A DNA stretch of 43,853 nucleotides from Deinococcales bacterium (GCA_031414595.1 JANNVX010000078.1:1-43853), one strand, 5' to 3'. Counted from the stretch's first letter, positions 7,099-12,680 are shown. Made by a program: numbers and translations. Notes: generated by a model not told the origin, from the letters alone.

Positions 7099-7270
7099 AA
7101 GCAGGAGCAAGAGAAAAACAGCTTTGTTCCTGCTTCCCAAGCCATTGCCCTATGCCGTTTGGCGCATGAATTTAGACTCGAGTCTGATGTACAATAAATC
7201 ACTCGAGCTTGATGCCGTCTGCGCTCGAGAATTTATGGGCGCTTGGTTGCCCAAGCAATGGGGTAGAATC

Positions 7271-7885
7271 ATGCCGAAGTTAAAGCGTCAGCACACCTTC
7301 GAGGAATTATTCGAGGAACAAGAACCAGACATAGTACCTGATGAATCAGCACCGTCACGTACTCGCGGTATTAATCTCAATGCGCCGACGGTGCTTGTCT
7401 TAAATGCCTCCTATGAGCCGTTGCATGTTTGTAGTATCAAACGTGCGATTACACTACTTATGTCTGATATTGCGCTTCGTATTGAGGATAAAGAAGATGC
7501 GTTTTTGCATTCCCCAAGTACCCAAATCCCCGTACCTAGCGTGATTCGCTTGATTAAGTATGTCAAGCGCCCACCACGTTTTCACATTGCTTTTAATCGC
7601 CGCAATGTCTTTCGCCGTGATAATCATGCTTGTCAGTTTTGCGGTAAGGGCGGCAGTGATTTAACGCTTGACCATGTGATTCCACGCTCGAGGGGCGGAC
7701 GCAACTCTTGGGAAAATATTGTCACCGCTTGCCGTGAATGCAACTCTAAAAAGCGTGACCGCACGCCACATGAAGCCAAAATGAAACTGATTCGTGAGCC
7801 GTTCGCGCCTAAGTTTGTCTTCTCGACAGCTTACGGACAAGCCCCTAAACTCGATGCTGCTTGGGAAAAATACATTGGCAGTTAA
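7271..7885 (+). CDS. HNH endonuclease family protein
   Basis: VLVLNASYEPL, RRNVFRRD..CQFCG, LTLDHVIPRSRGG and WENIVTAC..CN.KK motifs. Start probably ATG 7271 rather than TTG 7124. Confidence 0.9.
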   Translation: MPKLKRQHTFEELFEEQEPDIVPDESAPSRTRGINLNAPTVLVLNASYEPLHVCSIKRAITLLMSDIALRIEDKEDAFLHSPSTQIPVPSVIRLIKYVKRPPRFHIAFNRRNVFRRDNHACQFCGKGGSDLTLDHVIPRSRGGRNSWENIVTACRECNSKKRDRTPHEAKMKLIREPFAPKFVFSTAYGQAPKLDAAWEKYIGS

Positions 7886-9825
7886 TTCAGTAAGGCATGA
7901 CGCAAACGATCAAATTCTACGGGGACTTCGCCAAGATGTTCGACAAAACGGCGGCTGGCGCGAAGCAGTTCGCGTTTAGCTGCCAGTTCACCCTCGAGCG
8001 ACAACGTAGTGTTAATCACAAATTCGTAAATTGCGGTGTTGAACGGTTCAATCTCGAGTAAACGATGGGCTAAAGTTAAGCATTTTTGATGCTCACCACC
8101 GTCGTACCAGCGTTGCAAGGTCTCGAGTCCAATTTTAATGATGCTCCATGCCAAGGCTTCACGCTCCTCAACTGCCCACTGTGAACTGGCAGTTGGTAAG
8201 AATTCACCAGTGTAGGTGTTGATCGCACTGGTGATTCTATTATCATCATCGCTGTTGACCAATTGCTGAATAATTTGTGCATCCCAGTATAAATCAGTAT
8301 TGCATTGCACAGCGTAGGTTTTTGCATTTGGATTATATTCAATCCAAATTGCATCGGTGACGCTTTTTAAGGTCTGACGGGTTTTATGAAAGTAATTGGC
8401 GGCTTGGCGTGGAATTGAATCTGGGAATAATGTACCTAAGAACTTATCAAGACTACTGTGTGGATTTTTCAGTAGGTAAGCCAGTATTTCCACTGTACGA
8501 CTCATTCGCAAATTAAGAGGTTTGCCGTCAACGACTAATTGGATTTTACCCAGTGTTAGAATTTGAACTTGTAAAGCTGCTTTTGGTGCTTGAATTTTTG
8601 TAGGCATCAAGGCTTTGCGCCACGCATCTGGCGCTTTTAGTACCAACAATTGCTGTACTCGAGGTAAGCAAATCATTTCAAGACAAGCGGCTTGGTCTTG
8701 GCTTTCAAATGCAATATTCGCAGCGACTTCCAATGCACCTAAAGCTGCTTGTGAATCTGACAACCACAAGTTGACATTGGCAATATGCAAAAAAACACCC
8801 AGCAATTCACGCGGCATATTCAGTCGCAAAAACGCTTCTTTGGCTCGAGTTAAATGCACCAAAGCGACTATGGGTTGAGTGGCACTAAAAACCTGCCCTG
8901 AACGCCATTCAAGAAAGGCTAAATCGCGTTCAGAATGTATCTTAAGATTTTTAGCTCGAGCAAGATGCAATTTGCTAATTTCAAACTCTTCTAAAGTGAC
9001 ATAACAAGCGGCTAAACACAACTCAGCATGAAAAACTACGTCTAAATCCTCGGTTTGGTGAGCAAGACTTGACGATAATTCAAAAGCATTTACTGCCAGT
9101 TGCCAATCTCCTTGAGCGCGGTAAACCACACCCACCACATATTCGAGATTAGCAGTCAGACTTGGAACATATTCCAGTTTTTCACGAACCAACCCAAGGT
9201 CTTGTTTAGCCCGTTCAAAATCAGCTTGGAACAAGCGGCAACGCGCCCGATTCAGCAGCACTCGAGCAGCGCGACCCTGTAAGTAATTATCTGTATTTTC
9301 AAAAGCGATTGTAAAATAGTGTTCGGCTCGAGCGTACCGCCGTACATTCATATACACTTCTGCAAGTATTTGTGCAATTCCAGCCCGAAGTCGCAAAAGG
9401 TCTTCATGGCTTGTTACAGCCGCCCAAGCCATTTTCAGTGTTGACATTGCGCCTTCTTGATCACCTAGCACAAACTGATGAATGGCTAATTCACGTAGAA
9501 GTAGAACATGGTCAAAGCAGTTTTTGGGTTGTTGTTTTGAATCCAAGGAAGTAGTTGCTATTAAAGATTCTATTTCGGCATAGGCACTTTTCCATTCACC
9601 AAGGGCGCGATAAGCCGATGCCAATTCTATACGAGCTTGCACACAGCCTCGAGCCACTGCCCGAACTAATAAATCTTTAGCTCTAAAAGGTTGATTTAGC
9701 ACAAGCAATGCACAACCAGCCCACCGATCATCTACTGCGCTTGGCGCATCAATTCCTAAATACACATCCAAGGCTTTGCCCTCGTAACCATCCAAAATCA
9801 GACTGTGGAGTGGATGAGGCATCAT
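7882..9825 (-). CDS. TPR-repeat transcriptional regulator with C-terminal winged-HTH + BTAD (SARP-like) module
   Basis: The N-terminal ~410 aa are helical TPR-like repeats. They are followed by IQILTLGKIQLVVDG...RTVEILAYLL (OmpR-type wHTH) and YTGEFLP....WAVEERE...LLEIEPFNT (BTAD). Start is ATG 9825/9822 or GTG 9843. Confidence 0.85.
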   Translation of the reverse strand: MMPHPLHSLILDGYEGKALDVYLGIDAPSAVDDRWAGCALLVLNQPFRAKDLLVRAVARGCVQARIELASAYRALGEWKSAYAEIESLIATTSLDSKQQPKNCFDHVLLLRELAIHQFVLGDQEGAMSTLKMAWAAVTSHEDLLRLRAGIAQILAEVYMNVRRYARAEHYFTIAFENTDNYLQGRAARVLLNRARCRLFQADFERAKQDLGLVREKLEYVPSLTANLEYVVGVVYRAQGDWQLAVNAFELSSSLAHQTEDLDVVFHAELCLAACYVTLEEFEISKLHLARAKNLKIHSERDLAFLEWRSGQVFSATQPIVALVHLTRAKEAFLRLNMPRELLGVFLHIANVNLWLSDSQAALGALEVAANIAFESQDQAACLEMICLPRVQQLLVLKAPDAWRKALMPTKIQAPKAALQVQILTLGKIQLVVDGKPLNLRMSRTVEILAYLLKNPHSSLDKFLGTLFPDSIPRQAANYFHKTRQTLKSVTDAIWIEYNPNAKTYAVQCNTDLYWDAQIIQQLVNSDDDNRITSAINTYTGEFLPTASSQWAVEEREALAWSIIKIGLETLQRWYDGGEHQKCLTLAHRLLEIEPFNTAIYEFVINTTLSLEGELAAKRELLRASRRFVEHLGEVPVEFDRLRHALLN

Positions 9826-9858
9826 AATTATTTGATTATACACGTGATTGACGTTTTG

Positions 9859-9887
9859 TCAGCATTTCGTCAGCATCTGCTCAGCAC
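9859..9887 (+). promoter_or_regulatory. Three direct repeats TCAGCA(T/C) at 11-bp period; candidate SARP operator
   Basis: TCAGCA starts at 9859, 9870 and 9881. The last heptamer ends at 9887, 8 nt before the TAGGCT -10 (9896-9901). Confidence 0.75.
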
Positions 9888-9929
9888 TCGGAAATTAGGC
9901 TCTTGGCACAACCCTATTAGGAGGTTTAT

Positions 9930-10055
9930 ATGCGAAAAGCAATTAAATTGGTACTGGCGCTCATGGCAATTGGTGGTTTTTTCTCGGTTGGATTTGCAGA
10001 CCCACTTTCTCATTTAGGTGGCGGCTCAGGTAATGGTATTGCATCTCGACCATAA
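9930..10055 (+). CDS. Small secreted propeptide, 41 aa (not in ORF track)
   Basis: AGGAGG RBS before ATG 9930. The sequence MRKAIKLVLALMAIGGFFSVGFA-DPLSHLGGGSGNGIASRP has a basic n-region, a hydrophobic h-region and a G-F-A signal peptidase I site. Confidence 0.8.
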   Translation: MRKAIKLVLALMAIGGFFSVGFADPLSHLGGGSGNGIASRP

Positions 10056-10172
10056 TTATCTTTTACTTAACATAGCGCAAAGTTCGTTGTTTTGCCAGAA
10101 ATTAAACCCAAATGCTAGAATTTACGTGTGGGGAAATTATTGCTTCTGGCACTGTGATGTAAAAGGAGACAA

Positions 10173-12062
10173 ATGAAAGTTCCGTCATTCCGTCATTCCG
10201 TCATTCCTAGTTTAGTTGGAATTGCCATGCTCACCCTCTCGAGTTGTAACCAAGCCCCACAAGCCGAAAAATCCCATGAACCGACACTACAAATCTCTTC
10301 AACCCAAAACACCTTCCGAAAAGGCGAGCAATTCAACTTAACCCTCGAGCTTTACAGCCCCGAAGATAGCAATGTCAGTGTTATTTTAGGGGCTTCAAAA
10401 AACATTGGTTTAGACCAAGACCAAATCCAAGTCACCATTGCCGCAGGACAAACCAAAACCCTAGAGTTGCACGGCACACCAAAACGGGCTGGGTACTACA
10501 ATATTACCGCCAATGCTACTGGCAGCCAATGGCATGAACCCGCCGCCGATATGCTTGGTTTTAATGTTGCCACCGATAACATCAGTGCCGCAAACGCAGG
10601 AGCTTACCCTCAAACAGCCTCTGGACTCGAGTCATTAGAGGCTCACCTCGAGAACTTACCTAAATTTACCAGTGCAGAAGAATACGCTAAACTCGAAACC
10701 GCGCAGACATTGGATGATGTTAAAAATCAGGACTATGTGCGCTTAGATTCAAGACTCGACAATGTGCGTTTTACTAAACTAGATGGTACAAAATCCGAAC
10801 CATTTAACACTGTTCTAACCTATTTACCTGATACGGGTAGTGGACAACCCCGACCAGAAGACCTTGTAGCACCAACGGCGGCGGCTCGAGCAAAAGCTAC
10901 GATACGTCCTCAGGGTTCAGGCTGCGGAATATCAGGAGCTTGGGCAACAGTCTCAGCAACTATTTCTTATGCTGGTAAAACAGTTTCCCTTCCCTTTACA
11001 AAAATTTCAGTTTGGGAAGAAAGTCCATGGTGGGCATCTGGGCTAGTTTCAACTGGATACACAGATGCCAATGGCAATTACAGCTTTCAGAAACCCAATT
11101 GCGATTTGGGAGCTTGGTGGGATTATAGCGGAGTAGACCTTTACTTTGCTTTAGAATCACTTGATAGCCGTGAAATTGGCGTTTGGAACATTATCAGTTT
11201 TCTGTACAGTGGAACTTATGGGGTGCGTACTGGCACTTACTGGGATACAACTGCCACATCTTTTAACATCAATTTTAATGCCGGTAATTCCGACTCTGAA
11301 AATGCCATGTGGTTATATCGTATGGTCCAAATGGCACAAGATTATAATGTTGAAGCCGGTGGAAATGGCGCAACTTACTTTCCGATTCGTATTAGCTGGC
11401 CCACACGTTTAGACCCAAGAGGGTGGTTTGCGAGTCCATATGTAACTTCTTTTGCTCCTGTTGCTAAACTCGAGATTCTTGGACCACATTGGCTATACCC
11501 ATACATTGCTTGGCATGAATTTGGTCATAACATGATGTATAGAACCTCTAAGCCAGATGAATATGCGACAGCCTATGCACAAGGTCCAAATTCTGTCTAT
11601 CTGCCACTATTTGCTTGGGGCAGTCATGATATAGACCTACAAGAAAATGTAGAGCTTGCTTACAACGAGGGGTTCGCCAACTATTTCTATGTCATGCTAC
11701 AAGATCGTTATGATTTTAATTTTAACACCTACACTACAGACTCTAAGTTTCGGAGTTGCAATTATTATCCATCATGTAACGCATATCCCATTGGCGATCA
11801 AAATGAATCGCGTGTTTCAACATTTATGTACCGATATACTCAAGAAGTTTTGAGACCTGCGAACAACGGCATTTCGGCTAAAGCAGCTTATGGTCTAATA
11901 CGTTCCAGTTTATGGAACGCTGGACAGTATAATCTGAGTTTTTCGACAGCATGGGATACGAAAATTAAAACCACGTTGCCTTCTATTTCCAACTTTCTAA
12001 CAGCTACAAAAGCAATCGCTGATGCTACTTATCTCACACTTACAGGATTACCAACACCATGA
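10173..12062 (+). CDS. Lipoprotein, predicted gluzincin-type zinc metallopeptidase
   Basis: Lipobox LSSC, HEFGH (HExxH) and downstream NEGFA third-ligand motif. AAGGAG RBS. Confidence 0.75.
   Translation: MKVPSFRHSVIPSLVGIAMLTLSSCNQAPQAEKSHEPTLQISSTQNTFRKGEQFNLTLELYSPEDSNVSVILGASKNIGLDQDQIQVTIAAGQTKTLELHGTPKRAGYYNITANATGSQWHEPAADMLGFNVATDNISAANAGAYPQTASGLESLEAHLENLPKFTSAEEYAKLETAQTLDDVKNQDYVRLDSRLDNVRFTKLDGTKSEPFNTVLTYLPDTGSGQPRPEDLVAPTAAARAKATIRPQGSGCGISGAWATVSATISYAGKTVSLPFTKISVWEESPWWASGLVSTGYTDANGNYSFQKPNCDLGAWWDYSGVDLYFALESLDSREIGVWNIISFLYSGTYGVRTGTYWDTTATSFNINFNAGNSDSENAMWLYRMVQMAQDYNVEAGGNGATYFPIRISWPTRLDPRGWFASPYVTSFAPVAKLEILGPHWLYPYIAWHEFGHNMMYRTSKPDEYATAYAQGPNSVYLPLFAWGSHDIDLQENVELAYNEGFANYFYVMLQDRYDFNFNTYTTDSKFRSCNYYPSCNAYPIGDQNESRVSTFMYRYTQEVLRPANNGISAKAAYGLIRSSLWNAGQYNLSFSTAWDTKIKTTLPSISNFLTATKAIADATYLTLTGLPTP
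10180..10207 (+). repeat. Octamer tandem repeat (TTCCGTCA)x3.5 just after the start codon
   Basis: Perfect units at 10180, 10188 and 10196, plus TTCC. Confidence 0.9.
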
Positions 12063-12634
12063 AAAAGACTAATATTTTTTTATTGGGTCTTGCTTTCTTG
12101 AGTGGACTATTTGGCTGTACACCTGCAAGTAGTAATACGCAGCCCAACCTTACATCTGACAAATTGACAATCAAAGTTGGAGAATCTGCCATCATAACCC
12201 TGATTGCTCCAACTCGAACCATAACTTCAAGCCCAGACTTACCAACACAAGTAAACGATACGGGATTTTTGTACACTCCTGACCCAAATCAACCAGTCAT
12301 GAACCCGAACCAAACCATAAACCTACAATCTGCTCCATACTTGCTTGATATAAACGGGGCTTTATCAGGACCAAGCCCAAGCGCATTCCCAATTAGCTCA
12401 CACCTGGAAGTGATTTTGCCAATAACTGGAAGTGATAACATACCTTCTCGAGTTACGGTTGCTCGAGAAGGCGACCAGAGCAAAGCTACCTTTACCATAA
12501 AAGGAAAAAGTCTTGGTACTGTTATTCTAAAAGGTGGGTTTTTAAGTAATATAGTTGAAGTTCCAAATAATTTCAAACGCACACCATTTGTACCTGTTTA
12601 TGATGGAATAGTCACTATTCAAGTTGTGCCTTAA
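12059..12634 (+). CDS. Lipoprotein of unknown function
   Basis: MKK + hydrophobic stretch + LFGC lipobox. ATGA overlap with the peptidase stop suggests translational coupling. Confidence 0.8.
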   Translation: MKKTNIFLLGLAFLSGLFGCTPASSNTQPNLTSDKLTIKVGESAIITLIAPTRTITSSPDLPTQVNDTGFLYTPDPNQPVMNPNQTINLQSAPYLLDINGALSGPSPSAFPISSHLEVILPITGSDNIPSRVTVAREGDQSKATFTIKGKSLGTVILKGGFLSNIVEVPNNFKRTPFVPVYDGIVTIQVVP

Positions 12635-12650
12635 AAATTTGTAATTTTTC

Positions 12651-12680
12651 GACCCCAAGAAACACTCTTGGGGTCTTTTT
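12651..12680 (+). terminator. Intrinsic terminator
   Basis: GACCCCAAGA-aacac-TCTTGGGGTC followed by TTTTT. Confidence 0.8.

Follow-up and report, generated by a model that had tools for sequence, protein, structure and literature searches.

The window analysed here is the whole 43,853-nucleotide (nt) stretch JANNVX010000078.1:1-43853 of a Deinococcales bacterium (GCA_031414595.1), whose 94%-complete assembly has 120 contigs and a total of 4.49 Mb; positions are counted from the first nucleotide of the window. In agreement with this origin, the QueA protein encoded nearby shares 82% identity with that of a Deinococcales metagenome-assembled genome, and every other hit is at 52% or less. It carries two divergently transcribed genes, one for a regulator of 646 amino acids (aa) that joins a tetratricopeptide repeat (TPR) domain to a SARP-type DNA-binding module, and the other, a 41-aa open reading frame (ORF), for a predicted exported pre-peptide, with a candidate operator lying between them (Table 1). 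The gene pair, its architecture and the candidate operator are real and conserved, and by a narrow preference we read them as a two-gene, RRNPP-like peptide-signaling module with a SARP output. A sequence-only reading of this DNA had proposed such a circuit, and all the elements that it described, namely the regulator, the 41-aa ORF, the repeats, two lipoprotein genes and a terminator, are present where it placed them.

The composition of the regulator, described earlier as a TPR protein with a winged helix and a BTAD domain, is borne out by profiles and by structure models. Pfam finds TPR repeats in the N-terminal part of the window's protein, and its BTAD family falls below threshold there at residues 536-639 (E 0.0018; 19.1 bits against a cut-off of 22.1), while the domain is detected in 26 of the 42 aligned members of the regulator family. 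When the 42 C-terminal domains were combined into a profile, its positions 8-240 could be aligned with the AfsR SARP module (8hvr_I, E 2.3e-6), and this 240-residue profile also matches the DNA-binding domain of EmbR; phmmer with the C-terminal 240 aa alone found nothing significant in the PDB. The AlphaFold model of the C-terminal domain (predicted local distance difference test, pLDDT, 93.6) retrieved AfsR and EmbR from the PDB with Foldseek, at template modelling (TM) scores of 0.68-0.71 and 0.63-0.64, respectively, and nothing else below E 1e-3. In the model of the full regulator (pLDDT 92.6, predicted TM score 0.67), helical repeats run to residue 405 and are followed by a winged helix and the helical BTAD domain; an OmpR-type winged helix directly followed by BTAD is the arrangement that defines the SARP family. 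The regulator has no signal peptide or membrane helix. NCBIfam holds no family for the regulator or the peptides, and NCBI labels one member of the family, from Deinococcus yavapaiensis, a “SARP family transcriptional regulator.”

The sensor domain was compared with known structures in two ways. Foldseek with the whole protein is dominated by generic TPR proteins. Re-ranking with VIA-align over residues about 25-376 placed peptide-bound Rap proteins at the top, with Z 29.0-29.8 over 336-340 residues (8rtc, Z 29.8 with a root-mean-square deviation of 4.0 over 336 residues; 4gyo, 29.7; 4i9c, 29.0), followed by MalT domain III (28.6), NprR (26.7), LGN (26.4) and AimR (23.3). From these models we read the TPR domain as the same kind of compact receptor superhelix as that of Rap and NprR, a likeness of fold and not a claim of homology. 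In sequence, the TPR part matches NprR (E 5.7e-11) and RapJ (E 2.4e-8), and designed consensus TPR proteins match it more strongly (E 8e-41); because the NprR and RapJ matches are the weaker ones, common descent with the RRNPP receptors is not established.

The partner of the regulator, the 41-aa ORF, would encode a pre-peptide in two parts. By a simple hydropathy rule, residues 1-23 form a predicted Sec-type signal peptide: its N-terminus is basic, its core is hydrophobic, and a small-x-small site precedes residue 24. Residues 24-41 make up an 18-residue Gly-rich tail that ends in a basic residue and Pro. Aligned with 14 homologues, the pre-peptide has three invariant residues, namely the Ala just before the predicted cleavage site (position -1) and two Gly, and in orthologues AGGAGG or GGAGG stands at the same place before the start codon. 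Codon changes between related peptide genes number 108 synonymous and 118 non-synonymous, and in the closest pairs 28 and 13. We argue that the ORF is a real coding sequence, since synonymous changes far exceed the expectation for unconstrained DNA. In a comparison of four DNA runs, contigs of a near-identical strain from a second study cover positions 9641-9999 with 2 differences; the 8-bp repeat of Table 1 lies outside their reach.

The pairing of the two genes was surveyed at homologous regulator loci, which are interrelated and not independent trials and which span 20-65% regulator identity. Under a strict rule (a divergent ORF of 25-60 aa with an ATG start and a signal-peptide-like beginning, 30-250 nt upstream of the regulator), a micro-ORF was found at 35 of the 57 loci with sufficient upstream DNA. 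Applied to 1882 long ORFs of the host genome as controls, the rule picked out 21, the two regulators of that genome among them. A relaxed rule, to which 11 loci from named records were added for a total of 68, found a candidate at 60 loci, 52 of them within 150 nt; the corresponding controls were 150 of 1866 (8%) and 41 of 1866 within 150 nt. One of the 60 positives (L019) looks spurious. Eight loci gave no candidate under the relaxed rule (L018, L031, L032, L057, L058, L159, L165 and L166), and a looser look at one of them, L058, found a 43-aa signal-peptide ORF 602 nt upstream. The full-length paralogue in the window's own genome, 26% identical and on contig C29, has a divergent 38-aa signal-peptide micro-ORF of its own with a different tail. 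Homologues of the regulator at E <= 1e-10 occur in 33 genomes among 60 relatives; each of the 18 genomes from the same family is among these, and a single genome can have as many as 12 matches. A related-locus search with the regulator found no relative in genome contigs or in metagenome contigs, and word-based protein searches returned few family members. The expectation of the sequence-only reading, that secreted micro-ORFs would lie beside homologous regulators, thus held, and the small adjacent gene for an exported pro-peptide (signal peptide by the hydropathy rule) that is typical of RRNPP systems is present.

Given this conservation, we attach almost no weight to the idea that the 41-aa ORF is not a gene, being either a chance frame in the promoter region or translated only as a regulatory leader. 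The ORF is indeed short and unannotated, a look for RNA records of the stretch returned none, and the relaxed-rule controls show that 8% of genes also have some such ORF upstream. Against this, position, orientation, length, ribosome-binding site and signal-peptide character are kept in the 60 of 68 loci, residues at the predicted cleavage site are invariant, synonymous changes are in excess (28 to 13 in the closest pairs), and no Rfam family matched in 9600-10400. Of additional note, the control scan met two more divergent micro-ORFs in the host genome, at about 6202 on contig C21 and about 32841 on C39. Each has a good signal peptide and a short tail, which in one of them closes with Cys-Cys, and each lies upstream of a long ORF that encodes no TPR-SARP regulator.

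The spacer between the start ATG of the regulator and the start of the 41-aa ORF is 107 nt long and holds the triple repeat of 11-bp period that had been noticed in the shared promoter region. Tandem Repeats Finder reports a period of 11 at 9854-9886, a search of both strands of the assembly found the 11-bp-spaced triple TCAGYR/TCAGCA a single time, and its repeat score was reached by 0 of 1180 shuffled upstream regions. Read from the sequences, the spacers of clade A (nine loci with regulators 38-65% identical, plus the window itself) carry, at the corresponding position, 3-5 TCAG-type repeats spaced by 11-12 bp; the last repeat stands 8-9 nt before a TAnnnT hexamer, there is no -35 hexamer, and the Shine-Dalgarno sequence follows about 20 nt further on. 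In SARP-dependent promoters, 11-bp direct repeats end about 8-9 nt before the -10 hexamer and replace the -35 hexamer. The repeats of the window fit this geometry before the peptide gene, and their binding by the regulator is predicted. On the opposite strand, the likely start of the regulator (ATG at 9825 or 9822) lies 9 nt past a TATAAT hexamer, so its mRNA would be leaderless, and orthologues have TATACT 8 nt before the regulator ATG. Since the -35 hexamer of the regulator overlaps repeat 1, occupancy of the repeats would probably affect the regulator gene too. Contig C114 of the host genome has two further TCAG triples spaced by 11 bp, at about 42837 (-) and 63037 (+) (L003 and L004). A small SARP paralogue (C114:42022-42663) is encoded some 170 nt away from one of them, and both are probably operators of other SARP regulators.

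Across the precursors, signal peptides are alike, and tail classes follow the regulator clades. The clade of the window has Gly-rich tails ending in a basic residue and Pro; other tails end in Pro-Pro-x-x-Cys-x-x-Cys or in Gly-Gly, and in the family-f2 group only about seven residues follow the signal peptide. Overall, the tails are about 7-25 residues long and have no hydrophobic segment. In 8 of 60 precursors, a motif of 5-11 residues is present in 2-3 exact copies. The repeat unit in Deinococcus rhizophilus, D. murrayi, D. phoenicis and genome G044 is N-D-Y-G followed by two hydrophobic residues, and these two residues vary between species and are identical in both copies of one precursor. 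Such concerted change of the copies would be expected if each copy were released as the same short active peptide and recognized by its sequence. At some loci (L011, G015:C38; L043, G012:C331; L045, G008:C772), a single regulator is preceded by two peptide genes in tandem, whose tails are related yet not identical. At six f2 loci (L052, L053, L056, L059, L060 and L061), a 33-aa signal-peptide ORF lies 400-530 nt upstream of the regulator, compared with about 100 nt elsewhere, and the regulators are shorter (524-549 aa), with an alignment that lacks part of the C-terminus.

From these observations, we propose a detailed mechanism for the pair. The 41-aa product would be exported by the Sec route, its signal peptide would be removed, and the Gly-rich tail or a fragment of it would accumulate outside the cell. 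The peptide would then be taken up again, plausibly via an Opp-type permease; the host genome has 15 matches to Opp/Dpp-type binding proteins, which speaks to the capacity for uptake only. Inside the cell, it may bind the cytoplasmic regulator, in the groove formed by the superhelix of the Rap/NprR-like TPR domain. Binding would alter occupancy by the SARP module of the three TCAGCA repeats, which stand in place of the -35 hexamer of the peptide promoter, giving feedback on the peptide gene. Expression of the regulator itself would probably be affected as well, repeat 1 lying over the -35 hexamer of its leaderless promoter. In this scheme we infer the binding of the regulator to the repeats, the export, processing and uptake of the peptide, its binding to the TPR domain, and the sense, on or off, of its effect on the regulator.

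Another possibility is that the regulator activates the adjacent peptide gene without having the peptide as its ligand. In that case, the TPR domain would sense some other cue or a partner protein, and the peptide would be a signal to another receptor or an effector, for example a surface-active or antimicrobial one. We regard this as a serious minority possibility, clearly behind the feedback module. All the evidence for a functional pair fits it equally well, and one-to-one pairing could come from the DNA specificity of the regulator alone. Other SARP/STAND TPR domains, such as that of MalT, bind non-peptide ligands, and MalT domain III is among the close structural matches (Z 28.6). The covariation of receptor and peptide, which had been suggested as a check, does not separate the two explanations either: in a Mantel test, tail distance does track the TPR domain (r 0.61), with the cleavage-site rule overshooting in Gly-rich tails, and it tracks the SARP module equally (r 0.59). 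In favor of a peptide ligand, on the other hand, are several features of the family. A generic effector would hardly account for up to 12 diversified pairs in one genome, the short tails without a hydrophobic segment are unlike bacteriocins, and the concerted change of repeat copies points to sequence-specific recognition. Peptide-bound Rap receptors are the top structural matches, and no second receptor gene is conserved nearby.

Several points weigh against the peptide-signaling module that we prefer and temper our preference for it. The signal peptides were judged by the simple hydropathy rule and not by a trained predictor. Peptide-regulator binding, export and import are predicted steps. 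Generic TPR proteins score Z 22-26 against the TPR domain, up to 26.4 for LGN, so that the lead of Rap is about three Z units. The near-equal correlations of peptide distance with the two regulator domains are what linked genes would show anyway. A complex prediction of the TPR domain (a 42-row alignment) with pre-peptide residues 12-41 (15 rows) scored 0.02 against a mark of 0.32, with no controls, and speaks neither for nor against binding. If it is a signal, the peptide would have to cross the outer layer of the Deinococcus group twice. A generic triple-repeat test upstream of all peptide genes gave results not above shuffles outside the clade of the window. The operator is unique, and no regulon was found beyond the peptide gene: Genome-wide, 3 other places match the three TCAGCA words with 2-3 mismatches, none with fewer than 2 and none promoter-like. 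Finally, the promoter hexamers are consensus matches, and the scans behind them do not exceed shuffled DNA: 7 promoter-like sites were counted where 5.8 were expected, and 3 terminator-like sites where 3.3 were, so that a lone hexamer carries little weight.

Table 1. Features of the regulator-peptide locus and its downstream neighbors, in window coordinates.
Feature	Position	Strand	Basis or remark
Regulator ORF, 646 aa	7882..9843	-	ORF call; likely start at the ATG pair 9825/9822
C-terminal SARP module (OmpR-type winged helix and BTAD), residues about 408-646	7885..8601	-	Profile and fold
N-terminal TPR sensor domain, residues 1-407, about ten helix pairs	8602..9825	-	Pfam and structure model
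Regulator promoter-like site: CTGACA, 16 nt, TATAAT	9835..9862	-	11 of 12 consensus matches
Three direct repeats TCAGCA (9859, 9870, 9881), 11-bp spacing	9859..9886	+	Candidate SARP operator
-10-like hexamer TAGGCT of the peptide promoter	9896..9901	+	9 nt after repeat 3; no -35 hexamer
Shine-Dalgarno sequence AGGAGG of the peptide ORF	9919..9924	+	5 nt before the ATG
41-aa pre-peptide ORF	9930..10055	+	ORF call, hydropathy rule
Promoter-like site before the 629-aa gene: TTGCCA, 18 nt, TAGAAT with TG	10092..10121	+	Consensus match only
629-aa predicted lipoprotein with HExxH motif	10173..12062	+	Neighbor outside the conserved module
8-bp tandem repeat, unit TTCCGTCA, 3.5 copies	10180..10207	+	Just past the start codon of the 629-aa gene
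191-aa predicted lipoprotein	12059..12634	+	4-nt overlap with the 629-aa gene
Terminator-like hairpin, 10 pairs, T run	12651-12675	+	

Downstream of the peptide gene, the window has two coupled lipoprotein genes and a terminator-like hairpin, as had been described, and in both products the signal peptide has a Cys-containing lipobox-like end. Two labels once given to these genes are not supported here. The 629-aa protein had been called a peptidase, for which the HExxH motif is the only sign: it has no significant sequence match in Pfam, NCBIfam or the PDB, and in the Atlas it meets only clusters named “hypothetical protein,” one of which (score 0.85) has Mycolysin_M in 14% of its members. The two genes had also been taken as the secreted cargo that the circuit controls. 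In tblastn searches, homologues of the 629-aa and 191-aa proteins were found in no other regulator locus that we fetched, and most regulator loci have no co-directional gene after the peptide. In genome G005, the HNH gene, which in the window neighbors the regulator, is followed immediately by the pair, and neither a regulator nor a peptide gene intervenes. In G003, the pair is on another contig, away from any regulator; the two genes thus travel together. From the arrangement in these two genomes, it follows that the two-gene module of the window sits between an HNH gene and an independent lipoprotein pair.

The explanation that the peptide promoter drives one operon, with the peptide, 629-aa and 191-aa genes forming a full circuit in which a peptidase is part of the regulated cargo, is in our view improbable, and a cargo operon would be at best a local addition, itself an unlikely one. 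What speaks for it is that the scan found no terminator-like site between 10055 and 10173 and a strong one after the 191-aa gene. Two metagenome contigs (7544 and 15031 bases) also seem to hold homologues of the regulator and of the 629-aa protein, as judged by equal size only. At the nearest orthologous locus (L147 7433-7993, G003:C72), a 186-aa lipoprotein is encoded 338 nt after the peptide gene and weakly resembles the 191-aa protein of the window (33% over 46 residues, E 1e-5); G003 also keeps the true 191-aa orthologue, 71% identical, elsewhere. Set against this are the absence of both genes from the other regulator loci, the positions of the pair in G005 and G003, a promoter-like site of its own before the 629-aa gene, and the lack of a match between the 629-aa protein and any protease family. 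In G007, moreover, a terminator-like hairpin stands right after the peptide gene at the orthologous locus and is followed by LptF/G-like genes. In the host genome, read-through from the peptide gene into the two lipoprotein genes is possible.

Two further features of the neighborhood were observed. The HNH-endonuclease-like gene (7124..7885, +) converges on the regulator gene, and the ends of the two genes share 4 nt (7882-7885) at the stop codons. The TTCCGTCA repeat near the beginning of the 629-aa gene has 3 full copies in the window, where the ATG is in frame, and 4 in the G005 orthologue (L168, G005:C457), where the ATG is out of frame and only TTG or GTG starts are available. From its sequence, this repeat is a candidate slipped-strand phase switch.

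The regulator family is widespread in the phylum. A survey with the family profile (E <= 1e-30) found it in 160 of 301 sampled genomes, distributed over families as f1 8/9, f3 93/112, f2 52/103, f5 6/62 and f4 0/14; within f3, the genus g7, to which G044 belongs, has it in 81 of 100 genomes. Loci found with a query from g7 are from named Deinococcus species, and carriers of the pair include the cultured, harmless species D. murrayi, D. phoenicis, D. rhizophilus and D. altitudinis. A literature search on a TPR-SARP regulator with a peptide gene returned nothing, its coverage leaving out subscription journals, in line with the earlier statement that no characterized system of this form is known in Deinococcota. 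In two surveys, peptide systems are a trait of Bacillota, with signal types divided by phylum (the RRNPP_detector survey, PMC10075063), and only faint traces of them are described in the phylum (a survey of quorum sensing in thermophiles, PMC6022435).

On this distribution, a broader proposal can be made, for and against which we find the evidence evenly balanced. The phylum may have multi-paralogue Rap/NprR-like TPR receptors fused to a SARP module, each with its own Sec-exported pro-peptide. This would be true RRNPP-type quorum sensing outside Bacillota, in bacteria with an outer envelope; the pairs would have diversified in the manner of pherotypes, precursors would be multi-copy, and the receptors might share an ancestor with those of Firmicutes. 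Signaling by a cytoplasmic TPR receptor and an adjacent propeptide is regarded as characteristic of Bacillota and their phages, and a survey divides signal types by phylum in this way (PMC10075063). If the proposal is true, bacteria of the Deinococcus group would communicate in a gene-encoded language that no one has searched for, one and the same circuit logic would have been built with another output domain, and the SARP family would gain a new class of ligand-controlled members.

Finally, the pair can be placed among known systems. The CheY-SARP proteins of Deinococcus (COG3947, such as Deide_19260) are of the same phylum and have the same output module, and smaller SARP paralogues are present in the host genome. 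Unlike the regulator of the window, they have an N-terminal receiver domain and not a TPR domain, as does the SARP-type regulator studied in D. deserti, and no adjacent peptide gene is reported for them (PMC3564903). The winged helix followed by BTAD is shared with SARPs at large (AfsR, EmbR, ActII-ORF4, DnrI and the “large” SARPs with NB-ARC and TPR domains). The sequence here also fits 11-bp direct repeats that end about 8-9 nt before the -10 hexamer, as at SARP promoters. In contrast to the usual SARP, in which the module is N-terminal, it is C-terminal here, following the TPR domain; there is no ATPase domain, and the TPR domain is the only sensor. The regulator is moreover paired with a peptide gene and not placed in an antibiotic cluster, and its host belongs to Deinococcota and not to Actinomycetota.

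Divergent placement of the peptide gene and the receptor-regulator gene recalls the Rgg/SHP and ComR/ComS systems of streptococci, in which the regulator acts on the peptide promoter as a positive loop. SHP is exported by PptAB without a Sec signal peptide and is cut by Eep, and Rgg has an N-terminal helix-turn-helix (HTH); the pair described here, in contrast, has a predicted classical signal peptide and a SARP-type DNA-binding module. Compared with the RRNPP systems themselves, which belong to Bacillota and their phages, the host is of another phylum, Deinococcota, and has an outer envelope layer. The domain order is also reversed: RRNPP receptors have an N-terminal HTH, or in Rap a three-helix bundle, followed by the TPR domain, whereas here the TPR domain is N-terminal and the output is a SARP winged helix with BTAD. 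As in Rap-Phr, NprR-NprX, PlcR-PapR and AimR-AimP, a putative cytoplasmic TPR-type receptor is encoded beside a small gene for a predicted exported pro-peptide. Its TPR fold comes nearest to those of Rap, NprR and AimR, with Z 23-30 across some 330 residues, several diversified pairs occur per genome, and some precursors contain several presumed active units, all of which the pair has in common with RRNPP systems.

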